DNA from: Escherichia phage a48
Strand: one strand, 5' to 3'
Sequence record: OQ067375.1
Length of the DNA: 64,000 nt
Part shown: piece by piece, positions 18,631 to 22,568 of the stretch
Numbering within the stretch: the first letter of the stretch is position 1
How the letters are laid out: every line of letters starts with the position of its first letter
The notes under the pieces: model-generated
The model's input: only the letters and a program-made list of their open reading frames with translations
Told to the model about the DNA's origin: nothing
Databases searched by the model: none
Translations under genes and position numbers: made by a program

Positions 18631-19101
18631 TTAATCATGTTTCCACACCCCATCGGTATTTGACCAAAGTCGCTGATTATCTGATCCTCGCCACAGCTTT
18701 TTAGTCGGAAGATTTTTCTCATACTTCCCATCAATAATAACATCAACATATTTAAGCATTTCTAGTTGTTTAATATCTTCAAACTTATATCCTGTCCACA
18801 ACCAAATGCTTTTATTGGGATAAAGATTTTTAATAGTTTGAACAATGCAATGAATAACATCTCGATTGTCAGGATAGAGAGGGTCTCCTCCAGTTATAGT
18901 CAATCCTTCTATATAATCATTATTCAAACATTCAATTAATTGTTCTAGTGTTTCACCAGTGAATGGAATACCATTTCTAGCATTCCATGTTGATTTATTA
19001 TAACACCCTTCACATTTATGCAAACAACCTGTAACGAAAAGAACGACCCTGCAACCAGGGCCATTAACAAAATCGCAAGGATAAAATCTATCATAATTCA
19101 T
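18631..19101 (-). CDS. nrdG: anaerobic ribonucleotide reductase activase (radical SAM)
   Basis: 156-aa ORF with cysteine cluster CLHKCEGCYN. Confidence 0.9.
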   Translation of the reverse strand: MNYDRFYPCDFVNGPGCRVVLFVTGCLHKCEGCYNKSTWNARNGIPFTGETLEQLIECLNNDYIEGLTITGGDPLYPDNRDVIHCIVQTIKNLYPNKSIWLWTGYKFEDIKQLEMLKYVDVIIDGKYEKNLPTKKLWRGSDNQRLWSNTDGVWKHD

Positions 19102-20915
19102 TGGTGTTTAACCCTATGCATGATTTCTTTATTTTTACCGAGATTAAATCCGCGTTCGTTCGGATTTCCCAAATAACCACATGTTCTTCTTATGGTATTC
19201 ATCTTTTTAGGATCAGTTTCTCCACAAATAGAACAAACAAATCCGTTTTCAGTAGGAGTCATTTCATGAGTACTTCCGCATGTAAAACATTTATCTACTG
19301 GCATGTTAACGCCAAAATAATCTAAATGTTGTGCAGCATAATCCCATACGGCCTCAAGACCTTTTAAGTTATTTTTCATATCAGGAAGTTCAACATAAGA
19401 AATGTGACCACCTGTCGCAATGAAATGATATGGTGCTTCGCGGGAAATCTTTTCAAACGGAGTAATATTTTCTTCTACTGAAACATGGAAACTGTTAGTG
19501 TACCAACCTTTATCGGTAACATCTTTTACACTTCCATATTTTTCTGTATCGAGTTTACAGAAGCGATAACAAAGGTTTTCAGCAGGAGTAGAATATAAAC
19601 TAAAAGCGAATCCGGTTCTTTCAGTCCACTGTTTAAGATGAGCATTCATTTTAGTTAAAATTTCTCGTCCAATATCACGACCGACAAGAATATTCAATTC
19701 GTGAATACCAATGTATCCCAAAGACACTGAACTTCTACCGTTTTTAAATAACTCAATTATGTCGTCATCAGGTTTAAGACGAACCCCGAATGCACCTTCT
19801 TGGTAAAGAATAGGAGCAACAGTAGCTTTAACTCCTTTTAAGGAACTAATTCTACACATCAAAGCTTCAAAACACAAATCCATTCGTTCATTGAATAATT
19901 CAACAAATTTCTGTTCATTGAACTGTGTTCCAATATAAGAATCTAACGCGATGCGAGGAAGATTCAGTGTTACAACACCAAGATTATTACGTCCATCAAG
20001 AATTTCATTACCAGTCGAATCTTTCCATACGCTCAAGAAACTACGGCAACCCATTGGAGAAACAGGAACAGATGAACCAGTGATAGCTTTATTGTTCTTA
20101 GCTGAAATAATATCAGGATACATCCTTTTGCTTGCACACTCTAGAGCAAGCTGCTTAATATCATAGTTCGGATCGTCTTTATAAAGATTAACACCTTCTT
20201 CAACGAACATAACAAGCTTAGGGAAAATAGGAGTTATCCCATCACGACCAAGACCTTTAATACGATTTTTCAGAATTGCTTTCTGAATCATTCGTTCAGT
20301 CCAGTCAGTTCCCGTACCAAATGTAATTGTTACAAAAGGCGTTTGTCCGTTTGAACTAAAGAGAGTATTTACTTCATATTCATAAGCTTGGAATGCATCG
20401 TATACGTCTTTTTCTGTTTTAGATTGAGCATAATTTAACGCATCAGCGATTTGCCATTTTTCTGCATCCTCAATATGTTTTGCATAGGTGCGTTTAACAT
20501 AAGGAGAAAGTACTTTATCTACATTAGCAAAAGTCGTTCCGCCGTATTGGTGAGAAGCAACCTGTGCAGTAATTTGTGCCATAATTGCAGTAGCAACGCC
20601 AATTGATTTAGGAGTTTCAATCTGCGCATTACCTAGCTTAAATCCGTTCTCAAGCATTCCTTTTAAATCTACTAAACAGCAATTAGTAAATGGAAGAGCA
20701 GGGGAATAATCAATATCGTGGAAATGGATAATTCCGCTTTCATGCGCTTTCATAATAAAAGACGGGACCATATTTTTGGCAATGTGTTTAGACACAATAC
20801 CAGCCATAAGGTCCCGTTGAGTTGGAAAAACACGAGAATCTTTATTAGCATTCTCGTTTAAAAGGTCTTTATTAGTTTTATGAATCAATCCTTCAATTTC
20901 TTTTTCAATTGTCAT
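19098..20915 (-). CDS. nrdD: anaerobic ribonucleotide reductase (glycyl radical enzyme), uninterrupted
   Basis: 605-aa contiguous ORF with C-terminal glycyl-radical motif RTCGYLGN and CxxC zinc site. Confidence 0.95.
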   Translation of the reverse strand: MTIEKEIEGLIHKTNKDLLNENANKDSRVFPTQRDLMAGIVSKHIAKNMVPSFIMKAHESGIIHFHDIDYSPALPFTNCCLVDLKGMLENGFKLGNAQIETPKSIGVATAIMAQITAQVASHQYGGTTFANVDKVLSPYVKRTYAKHIEDAEKWQIADALNYAQSKTEKDVYDAFQAYEYEVNTLFSSNGQTPFVTITFGTGTDWTERMIQKAILKNRIKGLGRDGITPIFPKLVMFVEEGVNLYKDDPNYDIKQLALECASKRMYPDIISAKNNKAITGSSVPVSPMGCRSFLSVWKDSTGNEILDGRNNLGVVTLNLPRIALDSYIGTQFNEQKFVELFNERMDLCFEALMCRISSLKGVKATVAPILYQEGAFGVRLKPDDDIIELFKNGRSSVSLGYIGIHELNILVGRDIGREILTKMNAHLKQWTERTGFAFSLYSTPAENLCYRFCKLDTEKYGSVKDVTDKGWYTNSFHVSVEENITPFEKISREAPYHFIATGGHISYVELPDMKNNLKGLEAVWDYAAQHLDYFGVNMPVDKCFTCGSTHEMTPTENGFVCSICGETDPKKMNTIRRTCGYLGNPNERGFNLGKNKEIMHRVKHQ

Positions 20916-21385
20916 TTTAAACTCTTTCTAAGCTGCTTCTTAAATGAAGCTATTAACTGTGTTTTGGTGTCAGATTCATTATATTCAAATCCTCTTTGAA
21001 GCATCTCGGCCATCATTTCCTCTTTTCCTAAACGAGAAAATTCCTTTGATTTATCTCCAACAAAGTTAGGGTGAATATTATTTTGGGTGTAATCGGATTT
21101 TAAATAAGTAAGTAAATTTTCTAACCATTCAAGATAATCAACACCTTGACCCTTTAAGCCAGAACGATTAAATTTGTGCTTCATTTGACCTTCTGCAGCA
21201 TTGCAGAGATTACAAAGCAATCCACGTACCTTTCCTGCTTTTAGTCCATTTAATTCATGGTCATGATCGAGGTGATTAGATTGAACATCAGGATTTAATT
21301 CTCGTTGGCAAATTAAGCATTTACCGTTTTGTGCATCATAAAATTTCTGTTTTTCTTCTTTGTATAATTTGCCAGTCAATAACAT
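20912..21385 (-). CDS. 49: endonuclease VII (Holliday junction resolvase)
   Basis: 157-aa ORF with CLICQ..HLDHDHELNG..CNLCN, length as T4 gp49. Confidence 0.9.
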   Translation of the reverse strand: MLLTGKLYKEEKQKFYDAQNGKCLICQRELNPDVQSNHLDHDHELNGLKAGKVRGLLCNLCNAAEGQMKHKFNRSGLKGQGVDYLEWLENLLTYLKSDYTQNNIHPNFVGDKSKEFSRLGKEEMMAEMLQRGFEYNESDTKTQLIASFKKQLRKSLK

Positions 21386-21425
21386 AATAAAACCCTTACC
21401 TTAAATAGATAAGGGTATTTATTAT

Positions 21426-21602
21426 TTAAGTATTGTAAAACATTCGATGCAATCGTTTATACTGTCGAATCATCTTTTTAGTAGGACGAGAATAGGTTCC
21501 TACGCAAGTGGTCATATGAGGGTCCGTAGAATGTCCTTTAATAAAAAGTTTCCAAACCTTACCGCCATTTAACTTTTCAGTATAAACCAATTCGGTTTTC
21601 AT
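21426..21602 (-). CDS. small chimeric ORF carrying a duplicated pin-like C-terminus
   Basis: 58-aa ORF MKTELVYTEKLNGG...MIRQYKRLHRMFYNT; last ~16 codons encoded by a near-exact copy of the 3' end of the upstream gene. Confidence 0.4.
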   Translation of the reverse strand: MKTELVYTEKLNGGKVWKLFIKGHSTDPHMTTCVGTYSRPTKKMIRQYKRLHRMFYNT

Positions 21603-21638
21603 TAAAATGTCCTGTCAGAAAAAGAATTTTGAGTTTTT

Positions 21639-22124
21639 TCAAGTATTGTAAAACATTTGATGCAATCGCTTATATTGCCGAATCATTTGGTCAGAAAAAG
21701 AAATTTGAGTTTCAAGCCATTCAATGTACTCTGCGGCAGCTTGCATTAAATTTCCTTCATAACCATCGTTATTTTCTTGTGCAGCTAATTTAGCTAATGC
21801 GTATGAAATACGTTCACCCTGAAATCCAGCTTTAGGTTTATGAATAACTTGATCAACTCGTTCTACGACCTCTTCAATTTCGCCATTTTCTACTGATTCA
21901 GTATTCCACAAGCACCAATACGTAATTGGCTTATCGTAGATGTTAATAATCTTTCCATCAGAAAGTTCAATTTCAATAATTCCAGTATCAGGTTCTATAT
22001 CATCTTCGCATTCTTTTGCAAGTTCACGAACTTTAAAGACAGTACCTGCACTAAGTTCCGGCCAGTAATTACACAGCCCTTTATCAGCACGATTAATTCT
22101 AAACCACTTATCTACTGCAATCAT
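21639..22124 (-). CDS. hypothetical protein at the T4 pin position (possible protease inhibitor Pin)
   Basis: 161 aa from internal start MIAVDKWF (ORF track gives 167 aa); identity inferred from position only. Confidence 0.5.
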   Translation of the reverse strand: MIAVDKWFRINRADKGLCNYWPELSAGTVFKVRELAKECEDDIEPDTGIIEIELSDGKIINIYDKPITYWCLWNTESVENGEIEEVVERVDQVIHKPKAGFQGERISYALAKLAAQENNDGYEGNLMQAAAEYIEWLETQISFSDQMIRQYKRLHQMFYNT

Positions 22125-22247
22125 ATCCCATCTCCATATCAATTAAGTCATTTATCGTCGGTTCATTATATACTGTTTCTTCATCAGTGTAAACCGGTTC
22201 TTCCGGCTCTGGCTCTACAGTTTCCCATCTAGCCGCCCACCAAGGTT

Positions 22248-22568
22248 TTATAGCGTAATCCATTCTCGTACTGTCTGAGTTACTACACGTTCACGGGGCT
22301 CGACTAGTTCAACAGTCGGAACTGCATAATACCAGTCAGAATGATAAGAACCTGAGCGAGATTCATTTACAGCCACATGTACATTATGTTTTGGACTAAA
22401 ATAAACACACTGACGATATTGGCATTTACCATCTTGCACCCAGTCTTCTATTTCGACAGGTTTAAGATAATCGGAAAAATCGAAATCATAGTTTTCCGAA
22501 AATGCATCATGGTCTTCAATGATTTCGCTCAGAACTGCATCAACATCTAATTTATTTTCAATAGTCAT
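22248..22568 (-). CDS. hypothetical acidic protein
   Basis: 106-aa ORF. Confidence 0.5.
   Translation of the reverse strand: MTIENKLDVDAVLSEIIEDHDAFSENYDFDFSDYLKPVEIEDWVQDGKCQYRQCVYFSPKHNVHVAVNESRSGSYHSDWYYAVPTVELVEPRERVVTQTVREWITL

Follow-up and report, generated by a model that had tools for sequence, protein, structure and literature searches.

Why does the 3′ end of pin occur twice between pin and gene 49 of Escherichia phage a48, and what is the small open reading frame (ORF58) that ends in the second copy? We examined this junction in a 64,000-nt stretch of the phage genome (OQ067375.1), hereafter the window. A sequence-only reading of the same DNA had described a copy of the pin 3′ end interrupted by new sequence, and had offered a recombination footprint with a truncated paralogue, or a conserved RNA element, as explanations.

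Two direct repeats between gene 49 and pin

A repeat search finds two direct repeats at the junction. The longer spans 52 nt (21422-21473 versus 21635-21686, 88% identity, spacing 213) and the shorter 23 nt (21614-21636 versus 21690-21712, 22/23 identical or 96%, spacing 76). Across all diagonals of 21000-22300, the top-scoring 52-nt segment has 46/52 identical positions; 30 block shuffles gave at most 31/52. This confirms the near-duplicate of the end of the pin-position gene (21639-21685 versus 21426-21472) described earlier, and self-comparison of the region aligns both repeats well at the places noted for them. The second short block, given as 21690-21712 and 21610-21636, is present, but its left copy was started 4 nt early and begins at 21614. 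The layout that had been proposed, a pin 3′ end, about 130-140 bp and again a pin 3′ end, is right. The window contains no further repeat copy beyond the two. A candidate third repeat at the 76-nt spacing (21527-21548 versus 21603-21624, 18/22) is at chance level, since 18/22 was reached in 3/20 shuffles.

The features of the junction are as follows, with primes marking the copies nearer gene 49.

20912..21385, minus strand: gene 49 (endonuclease VII), 157 aa, downstream of the junction; gp49 annotation in T4 and relatives
21392..21416, minus strand: hairpin ACCCTTATCT-ATTTA-AGGTAAGGGT, closely preceding the gene 49 ATG; from folding and a terminator-like scan
21416..21423, minus strand: putative late-promoter box AATAAATA, 7/8 against the T4 consensus TATAAATA, abutting the hairpin 5′ arm
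21426..21602, minus strand: ORF58, 58 aa, intact DUF7279 / phrog_3272 gene by Pfam, phrog, pN/pS, alignment and AF2
21426..21473, minus strand: Y′, native DUF7279 tail of F25-type haplotype (codons 44-58 and stop), from which the repeated segment derives
21474..21602, minus strand: U, DUF7279 codons 1-43, a segment without counterpart in T4, T2 and T6
21603..21636, minus strand: X′, relic of the 3′ end of ancestral pin (..ETQNSFSDRTF*), now non-coding, 33/34 against the F25 coding end
21634..21639, minus strand: novel joint, a six-A run linking the fused pin stop (ACTTGA) to the relic (AAACTCAAAAT)
21639..22124, minus strand: pin (Lon protease inhibitor), T4-type chimeric form, 161 aa by Pfam and phrog; T4 pin is also 161 aa
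21639..21686, minus strand: Y, captured DUF7279 tail, 15 codons plus stop, the pin C-terminus; T4/T6-type haplotype
21684..21689, minus strand: fusion point in pin, GAC CAA / ATG ATT, from form (b) (NBG2, JEP6, HY01, F25) against form (c) (T4, T2, T6)
21690..21712, minus strand: X, native codons of pin (..ETQISFSD), functional equivalent of relic X′

ORF58 as a member of the DUF7279 family

The 58-aa ORF at 21426..21602 (-) had been described correctly, with a 15-residue C-terminus in common with pin and one R/Q difference. Its interpretation as a chimeric or truncated paralogue with a novel N-terminus does not hold. Pfam DUF7279 (PF23945) matches residues 7-56 on profile positions 1-53/53 with 62.7 bits (cut-off 24.5; 3e-17) and phrog_3272 matches residues 1-58 on profile positions 1-58/59 (E 3.4e-34), which makes ORF58 a full-length family member with its native tail. 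The protein holds every invariant column of a 10-sequence alignment of homologues down to 57% identity (R39, P40, T41, K42, I45, R46, K49, R50, H52, R53 and F55), including the C-terminal helix motif RPTKK-IR--KR-HR-F. Conservation within the family is highest in the tail, MIRQYKRLHRMFYNT, which is also found in Dhakavirus homologues. In seven pairwise comparisons pN/pS lies between 0.10 and 0.34, pointing to purifying selection on ORF58, and an AGGA ribosome-binding site lies 7 nt before its ATG; the ORF is probably translated. AF2 predicts three beta-strands and a basic C-terminal helix (residues 42-56), with one of five models confident. On this comparative evidence, ORF58 reads as an old, intact phage gene.

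The U segment occurs in 265 phage records, Dhakavirus among them. The family ranges over Tequatrovirus, Dhakavirus and Mosigvirus-like phages and, by fold match, Salmonella phage S16, an uncharacterised protein of which is the sole significant DUF7279 fold match. No PDB entry matched DUF7279 by sequence or fold, and we found no paper naming DUF7279; one record (APTC-EC-2A) annotates ORF58 as a 'host protease inhibitor'.

A probably borrowed C-terminus in Pin

Lon inhibition has been shown for T4 PinA, as cited in PMC8835725. In the window, Pfam Inhibitor_I24 (PF10465) matches residues 4-141 of pin with 164.7 bits (cut-off 27; 1.5e-48) and phrog_2167 matches residues 1-146 (1.2e-64). Both Pin profiles end before residue 147 and thus leave the last 15 residues of the 161-aa protein outside the Pin family, while residues 146-161 match phrog_3272 positions 43-58 (E 9e-4). 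Pins without this tail are found in forms (b) and (d) of the junction (see below), in Dhakavirus and in Mosigvirus. Judged by these family boundaries, the chimera is evidently pin, with the last 15 DUF7279 codons, and ORF58 is not chimeric. The fusion point at 21684..21689 would be the scar of a 137-bp deletion in which the pin stop and DUF7279 codons 1-43 were lost; the T4/T2/T6-type Pin would be a chimera because this deletion placed codon 146 of pin in frame with codon 44 of DUF7279.

The two tails have since varied differently. Among seven changes in all, copies of the DUF7279 tail show three synonymous and no non-synonymous changes, whereas copies of the pin tail show one synonymous and three non-synonymous changes plus a fixed R53Q, affecting the family-invariant residues R46, H52 and R53; pin tail Y accordingly has Q where the DUF7279 family has its invariant R53. 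That the DUF7279 tail differences are all synonymous indicates constraint at the protein level. The captured tail, by comparison, probably has little function in Pin. It could instead be functional in T4-type Pin as a basic helix, taken from the conserved core of a separate small protein, making PinA a two-module protein in which the fusion replaces the lost DUF7279 gene or alters Lon engagement, an idea we consider doubtful. Were it correct, phages of form (a) would keep both versions because the fusion is not a full replacement for the free protein. A single-sequence AlphaFold model of the 161-aa Pin (pLDDT 38.6) is too low in confidence to place the tail, and our search found no solved structure for T4 PinA or any homologue.

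Junction forms and their parents

Related phages carry the junction in distinct forms. Form (a), that of the window, consists of the fused pin (X-Y), X′ and the DUF7279 gene (U-Y′). In form (b) (F25, NBG2, JEP6 and HY01), a 148-aa pin is followed by DUF7279, and in form (c) (T4, T2 and T6) the fused 161-aa pin stands without a DUF7279 gene. The distance from a pin anchor to the hairpin is 306-308 nt in form (a), 232 in form (b), 95 in form (c) and 62 in form (d); these four length classes differ by exactly the predicted segments. The T4 junction shares with the window the 161-aa Pin, an identical fusion point, the tail, the hairpin and the start of gene 49. In the comparison with T4, T2 and T6 that had been suggested, the pin stop there leads directly to the late-promoter box and hairpin, whereas the window has 213 bp more, comprising the relic of the old pin end and the intact DUF7279 gene.

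Ancestral-type pin ends in ...SFSDRAF*, and its stop overlaps the DUF7279 start (TAATG) in NBG2, F25 and Dhakavirus VR5. In VR5 a pin-like gene ending in ..SDKAF* is followed by TAATG and a DUF7279 gene with the tail, and DUF7279-like genes with the tail also occur in JS98, WG01 and the IMG/VR loci L006 and L011. Two genera share form (b), in which pin148 occurs without the duplication. In form-(b) Tequatrovirus and in VR5, pin148 is translationally coupled to the DUF7279 gene, and this gene and its leader are as in the window. In those phages the 34 nt upstream of DUF7279 encode the end of pin, whereas the window has a non-coding relic there.

The fusion junction is present in 366/501 matching records (about 73% of the Tequatrovirus records matched). 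Forms (b) and (d) together account for about 124-135 records, a joint count in which they are not separable because the junction query bridges the DUF7279 gene, and natural 148-aa Pins without the tail make up roughly a quarter of the matched related phage records. Form (a) is a tight cluster, with at least 98% identity in U across about 115 records; forms (b) and (c) are more diverse.

The segments of the window have two affinities. X and Y together match T6 at 73/74 and T4 at 72/74 positions. The remainder resembles F25, a donor type represented by one genome: X′ matches F25 at 33/34 positions and other form-(b) phages at 30/34, U at 127/129 against 119-122/129, and Y′ at 46/48 against 43-44/48, with 40-41/48 for Y′ against the T4/T6 pin tails. 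Y has one mismatch to the NBG2 DUF7279 tail and five to its own neighbour Y′, which indicates that the two copies come from different lineages. We also sought the right-hand crossover in the flanks, where the pin body matches all types at 383-400/412 positions and gene 49 is equally non-discriminating; the parents are identifiable within the junction and not outside it, because the flanking genes are too mosaic and too uniformly similar.

A relic of the old pin end and its joint

In F25, the 34 nt matching X′ are still in frame and encode the end of pin. X′ is non-coding in the window because the fused pin, with its own stop, sits upstream. The TAA of the relic overlaps the ATG of ORF58, and X′ now serves as the ORF58 leader, carrying the AGGA ribosome-binding site. 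In F25, AGG is already present at this site, where it is a synonymous Arg codon within pin; we therefore rejected the idea that the AGGA was made by three substitutions after ORF58 lost its coupling.

The joint between Y and X′ adjoins a CTTGAAA motif common to both presumed parents, and its sequence, ACTTGAAAAAACTCAAAATTC, is identical in every form-(a) locus examined. It is fully covered in 113 deposited records of phages whose hosts are Escherichia, Shigella, Yersinia, Salmonella and Proteus, and also occurs in IMG/VR contig L010 and in 3/7 metagenome contigs (L025, L027 and L029). This left join is only loosely explained, because six A are present where a simple CTTGAAA microhomology crossover predicts three.

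Order of events and competing explanations

The sequence-only reading was right to see a footprint of recombination here. Very probably, the junction records two successive recombination events in Tequatrovirus, a deletion fusion and then a regain of DUF7279 from a divergent form (b). Given the anatomy, family memberships, ancestral state, two parental affinities and single form-(a) joint described above, the order and mechanism of the joins would be as follows. The ancestor would have had form (b), with a 148-aa pin (..SFSDRAF*), the TAATG overlap and a DUF7279 product ending in ..RPTKKMIRQYKRLHRMFYNT. A 137-bp deletion would then have taken out the final two codons of pin with its stop, together with DUF7279 codons 1-43, joining pin codon 146 in frame with DUF7279 codon 44 and so creating the 161-aa Pin of form (c). 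Later, recombination would have brought together a form-(c) genome whose tail was T6/T4-like and a divergent, F25-like form-(b) genome. On the left, an illegitimate join after the fused pin stop, in the A-run by CTTGAAA, would have entered the donor 34 nt before its pin end; on the right, homologous recombination presumably took place in the tail, the hairpin or gene 49. The outcome would be form (a), with a fused pin, a 34-nt relic holding the DUF7279 ribosome-binding site and an intact DUF7279 gene. The apparent duplications would then be homologous pieces of two parental alleles set side by side. Recombination between Y and Y′ could also have turned form (a) secondarily into form (c) in some genomes.

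The same forms could be reached in another order if a form-(b) genome first underwent tandem duplication of X-U-Y (about 213 bp) and the first copy then lost U in frame to give form (a), with form (c) arising later through the 52-nt repeats and form (b) regenerable by X/X′ recombination. T-even phages are known for tandem duplications and repeat-mediated deletions, which this order would fit, and repeat recombination in form (a) gives exactly form (c) at -213 bp and form (b) at -76 bp. We nevertheless regard it as unlikely: Y and Y′ are not sisters, Y being one mismatch from the NBG2-type tail and Y′ F25-type and five mismatches from Y; form-(a) U is F25-type as well; one extra event is needed for form (c); no genome with two DUF7279 genes appears among the length classes sampled; and the tight cluster is form (a), with forms (b) and (c) the more diverse. 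Much less probable is the earlier proposal that the pin 3′ end was copied and the copy split by new sequence of about 130 bp, yielding ORF58 as a truncated paralogue. Relative to a T4-type pin, X′-(insert)-Y′ does resemble a split X-Y; the supposed novel N-terminus and the tail, however, form one conserved family (DUF7279 / phrog_3272), the tail is absent from the Pin family profiles, and the duplication-free pin148 of form (b) exists in two genera.

A cis-acting role for the repeats, as a conserved RNA or DNA element (a regulatory structure, recombination site or mobile-cassette end), is suggested by two near-identical copies within 300 nt on one transcript and by weak Rfam matches overlapping the hairpin region (ohsC, 29.7 bits; rnk leader, 21.3 bits). 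Both scores are far under the gathering score of 50, so that no Rfam family reaches threshold, and both matches are centred on the gene 49 hairpin, not on the repeats. The RNAs of the two repeat copies and the joint fold like shuffles (z -1.4, +0.5 and +1.3), the 64-kb window lacks a third copy, and both copies are in frame, with purely synonymous variation in the DUF7279 copy. The conserved RNA element of the sequence-only reading is thus unsupported, and a cis-acting element in the wider sense is highly improbable. Between gene 49 and pin the ORF list shows nothing that encodes an endonuclease, and 21386-21720, including the interval between pin and ORF58, contains no sigma-70-like promoter and no stem-loop other than the gene 49 hairpin; the locus does not have the makeup of a mobile cassette, either a free-standing homing endonuclease or the promoter-stem-loop type of T4-type hyperplastic regions. 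A mis-joined repeat, or a collapsed one such as had been named as a possible refutation, would make the arrangement an assembly artefact. Only the existence of repeats speaks for it. The 113 independent records, which come from many different laboratories and hosts, share one Y to X′ joint with L010, L025, L027 and L029, and the repeats, just 52 and 23 nt long and diverged at several positions, are shorter than a sequencing read. We consider an artefact next to inconceivable, and retain the deletion fusion followed by regain.

The gene 49 hairpin

The hairpin that had been noted between the 58-aa ORF and gene 49 is present at 21392-21416 (-), with a 10-bp stem (-18.1 kcal/mol, z = -4.4). The Shine-Dalgarno sequence of gene 49 (AAGGG, 7 nt before the ATG) sits in its 3′ arm, and the structure is also terminator-like because a T-run comes next. 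It is kept in the T4, T2, T6, Dhakavirus and Mosigvirus loci. The box AATAAATA at its 5′ edge may act as a promoter, and the Mosigvirus-like loci L006, L011 and L018 have a perfect TATAAATA at the equivalent position. In T4, hairpins that sequester the ribosome-binding site and embed a late promoter are described for genes 49, soc, e and I-TevI in the review PMC2988022, where the gene 49 case is credited to Barth et al. 1988. The window hairpin has the same sequence as that of T4, with the Shine-Dalgarno in the 3′ arm and a TATAAATA-like box at the 5′ edge, and looks like the gene 49 ribosome-site hairpin reported there. It is the right-hand boundary of the rearrangement and no part of it.

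Relation to known systems and significance

The classic in-frame deletion fusion is the T4 rII deletion r1589, which joins rIIA to rIIB. There too an intergenic deletion removes the upstream stop and the downstream start and fuses the frames. The pin fusion differs in being natural and in keeping 15 downstream codons, and the lost gene was regained in form (a). Integrating elements may bring along a duplicate of the target gene's 3′ end, as at attP sites for tRNA genes, and the window resembles them in having inserted DNA between two gene 3′-end copies with the upstream gene intact. Unlike such elements, the window has no integrase, att core or endonuclease, the two copies are alleles that diverged in separate lineages, and the shared 3′ end came originally from the 'inserted' gene, not from the 'target' gene.

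For annotation, ORF58 should be named a DUF7279 protein and not a pin fragment, and the 34 nt upstream of it a pin relic. T4 PinA (161 aa) is the reference phage Lon inhibitor, and its last 15 residues would be borrowed from the neighbouring gene; the borrowed tail and the natural tail-less Pins may be of use in construct design and in reading Pin conservation. The locus offers a clean case of loss, fusion and regain of a small phage gene, with all intermediates in public genomes. It is ordinary mosaic evolution of T4-like phages, and leaves the known picture of T4-like genome evolution unchanged.

Layout of the pin–gene 49 junction

The window belongs to a T4-like (Tequatrovirus) genome, and the minus strand carries every gene of the region.

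Features of the region
19098-20915, minus: nrdD
20912-21385, minus: gene 49 (endonuclease VII)
21392-21416: hairpin, -18.1 kcal/mol (z = -4.4), with the gene 49 Shine-Dalgarno in its 3' arm
21426-21602, minus: ORF58, 58 aa
21639-22124, minus: pin (Lon protease inhibitor), 161 aa counted from ATG
Upstream of pin, minus: 49.1 and 49.2
21422-21473 and 21635-21686: repeat Y' (ORF58 tail) and Y (pin tail), 52 nt, 46 identities, spacing 213 nt, from the repeat search
21614-21636 and 21690-21712: repeat X' (non-coding, upstream of ORF58) and X (native pin codons), 23 nt, 22 identities, spacing 76 nt, from the repeat search

Both direct repeats described in the sequence-only reading were recovered by repeat search, and the 15-residue C-terminus that it saw shared by ORF58 and pin is identical save for one R/Q difference. 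Block shuffles of the 1.3-kb region gave at most 31/52 identities, versus 46/52 for Y/Y', and the window holds no further copy of this repeat. A third short repeat (18/22, 76-nt spacing) was taken as chance, 3/20 shuffles reaching the same score.

The nrdD gene is one unbroken 605-aa ORF, while the T4 annotation joins nrdD from two pieces around an intron; the intron appears to be absent from phage a48. The 49.1/49.2 pair upstream of pin (22108-22568, minus) is T4-like, another small-ORF pair occupies this place in T6, phage 107 and F25, and similarity to these three ends at query position 1349/1401; this marks a further mosaic breakpoint, some 500 bp away from the junction. A strong sigma-70-like promoter match inside 49.1 (22165-22193, minus; TTTACA-17-TATAAT, 11/12), at a place equivalent to an annotated promoter in phage NBG2, is the probable source of early pin and ORF58 transcripts.

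The shared tail originates from DUF7279

Pfam assigns ORF58 to DUF7279 as a full-length member (62.7 bits, cut-off 24.5), and phrog_3272 matches its residues 1-58. The Inhibitor_I24 profile covers pin residues 4-141 only, leaving the tail outside, and phrog_2167 (146 positions) spans pin residues 1-146 and ends before the tail; pin residues 146-161 instead match the ORF58 family, phrog_3272, at positions 43-58. ORF58 was aligned with nine homologues out of a collection of 5.8 billion proteins. Conservation is highest in the tail, and R39, P40, T41, K42, I45, R46, K49, R50, H52, R53 and F55 stay unchanged in sequences with as little as 57% identity. AlphaFold tentatively places three beta-strands before a helix that coincides with the tail (residues 42-56; best model pLDDT 81.6, the remaining four near 53).

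Outgroup loci from Dhakavirus, IMG/VR and Mosigvirus show that the tail belonged to DUF7279 from the start and that the ancestral Pin lacked it, ending ..SD(R/K/E)AF. The short Pin-like gene of Dhakavirus VR5 ends ..RFSDKAF, with a stop overlapping the start of DUF7279 (TAATG), and the 58-aa DUF7279 product ends ..KKMIRQFKRLHRSFYNI. JS98 and WG01 also carry DUF7279 with the tail, and the Pin-like orf78 of JS98 ends ..RFSDEAF. More distant DUF7279-like proteins (IMG/VR L006 and L011, Mosigvirus APCEc01) end ..KRFHRDFYNVY or ..KRSHRNFYREY, and Mosigvirus Pin ends ..YLERRLS, without the tail.

The Dhakavirus Pin-like proteins (JS98, L004 1144-1801; VR5, L016 853-1202) are only 57 aa, the C-terminal third of Pin, and JS98 has an additional 100-aa ORF (orf77) between the Pin-like gene and DUF7279. 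The DUF7279-like gene of APCEc01 (L018 1422-2019) lies upstream of pin rather than between pin and gene 49, and L011 has such a gene and no pin. The position of DUF7279 relative to pin has shifted more than once.

Four junction forms and the origin of the window arrangement

Tequatrovirus junctions, with the distance from an anchor in pin to the hairpin
Form (a): window, phage 107, APTC-EC-2A, L010, L025, L027, L029; fused 161-aa pin, relic X', intact DUF7279; 306-308 nt
Form (b): NBG2, JEP6, HY01, F25, metagenome L024, L026; 148-aa pin ending ..SFSDRAF, TAATG, DUF7279; 232 nt
Form (c): T4, T2, T6; 161-aa pin, no DUF7279; 95 nt
Form (d): T4_ev240; 148-aa pin with native end, DUF7279 deleted; 62 nt

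Removing 137 bp from form (b) yields form (c), with pin GAC CGA fused straight to ATG ATT CGG at DUF7279 codon 44. Form (d) equals (b) minus 170 bp, with TTTTA(C)AAT microhomology at the deletion ends, and form (a) equals (c) plus 213 bp, or (b) plus 76 bp. Comparison of the four forms thus identifies the T4-type pin as the chimera and ORF58 as the intact original. The layout proposed in the sequence-only reading stands, and its polarity is reversed by the profile ends, the outgroups and the junction forms: pin, not ORF58, is chimeric. A further natural variant of the pin C-terminus occurs in vB_VIPECOOM03 (L015 804-829), where a 1-nt deletion near the pin end shifts the frame into 25 nt of the DUF7279 gene, giving ..SFSNERFNENRINLY before the stop.

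Identities taken segment by segment show that the window junction draws on two different sources. Its X+Y segment matches T6 at 73/74 and T4 at 72/74, while X', U (DUF7279 codons 1-43) and Y' match form-(b) phage F25 at 33/34, 127/129 and 46/48, versus 30/34, 119-122/129 and 43-44/48 in other form-(b) phages. In F25 the X' sequence still codes the pin end (..ETQNSFSDRAF). Y has one mismatch to the NBG2-type DUF7279 tail and five to the window's own Y', so the two copies trace back to separate lineages rather than to duplication inside one genome. A single joint, ACTTGAAAAAACTCAAAATTC, is common to all form-(a) loci examined, which indicates a single event. The recombination footprint suspected at this locus is therefore borne out by the junction forms and the two-source identities. 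The alternative of a conserved RNA element finds no support: folding of both repeat copies and the joint is no better than shuffles (z = -1.4, +0.5, +1.3), and Rfam gave only two sub-threshold matches (29.7 and 21.3 bits, where the gathering scores are 50), both on the hairpin.

The left join would link the bases immediately downstream of the stop codon in a T6/T4-type fused pin with a site 34 nt short of an F25-type pin end, within the A-run beside a CTTGAAA motif present in both parents. It was probably illegitimate, because the joint holds six A rather than the three that a clean crossover in microhomology would leave. The right-hand exchange was presumably homologous recombination; high similarity and a mosaic make-up of the flanks mask its position. 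The relic X' was probably kept because it supplies DUF7279 with a ribosome-binding site (AGGA, 7 nt ahead of ATG).

The form-(a)-specific Y-to-X' joint has full coverage in 113 phage records (hosts Escherichia, Shigella, Yersinia, Salmonella and Proteus), and the pin::tail fusion junction in 366 of 501 matching records. The latter count puts form (c) at about 253 records; forms (b) and (d) together make up the remaining roughly 124-135. U occurs in 265 records, Dhakavirus among them, and seven metagenome contigs comprise three of form (a), two of (b) and two of (c). An assembly artefact is ruled out by the joint in 113 records and by form (a) in 3/7 metagenome contigs. The searches for U, joint and fusion junction each returned one record with two query places (e.g. 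265 records, 266 places), which could be a terminally repeated record or a true intermediate with two copies.

The gene 49 hairpin

The hairpin is directly preceded by AATAAATA, where Mosigvirus-like loci have a perfect TATAAATA, and is identical in T4. At T4 late genes a hairpin of this kind reportedly hides the ribosome site in read-through transcripts, and late transcripts begin within its stem (PMC2988022, citing Barth et al. 1988 for gene 49). By analogy, the window hairpin would match this arrangement; in the rearrangement it is the right-hand boundary only.

Constraint on DUF7279 and on the captured tail

Seven comparisons of ORF58, inside single genera and across them, gave pN/pS of 0.10-0.34. 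Among Tequatrovirus loci, the DUF7279 tail has three synonymous and no non-synonymous changes, and the pin tail one synonymous and three non-synonymous (M44K, R46Q, H52N), with R53Q fixed in all copies. Three of these four substitutions (R46Q, H52N and R53Q) fall on positions invariant across the DUF7279 family. The counts, though small, suggest relaxed or different constraint on the captured helix in Pin. Together with the natural 148-aa Pins, these substitutions make a passenger role for the tail most likely.

No solved structure matches DUF7279 by sequence or fold; among predicted structures, its sole significant match is to a 54-aa, uncharacterised protein from Salmonella phage S16 (E 1.2e-4, TM 0.75-0.80). 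We found no solved structure for Pin or for any of its homologues, and modelling Pin from its single sequence gave an unusable result (pLDDT 38.6). The literature search returned no paper naming DUF7279, and the searchable, incomplete literature held no description of a DUF7279 origin for the T4 Pin C-terminus. In APTC-EC-2A (L020 961-1137), the DUF7279 gene is labelled 'host protease inhibitor', an annotation error that the chimeric T4 Pin has propagated, presumably through the shared 15-residue tail.

The locus is a well-sampled case of known T-even processes, deletion fusion followed by mosaic re-acquisition. It leaves the overall view of how T4-like genomes evolve unaltered, and the DUF7279 origin of the Pin C-terminus is of modest practical interest for PinA/Lon work.
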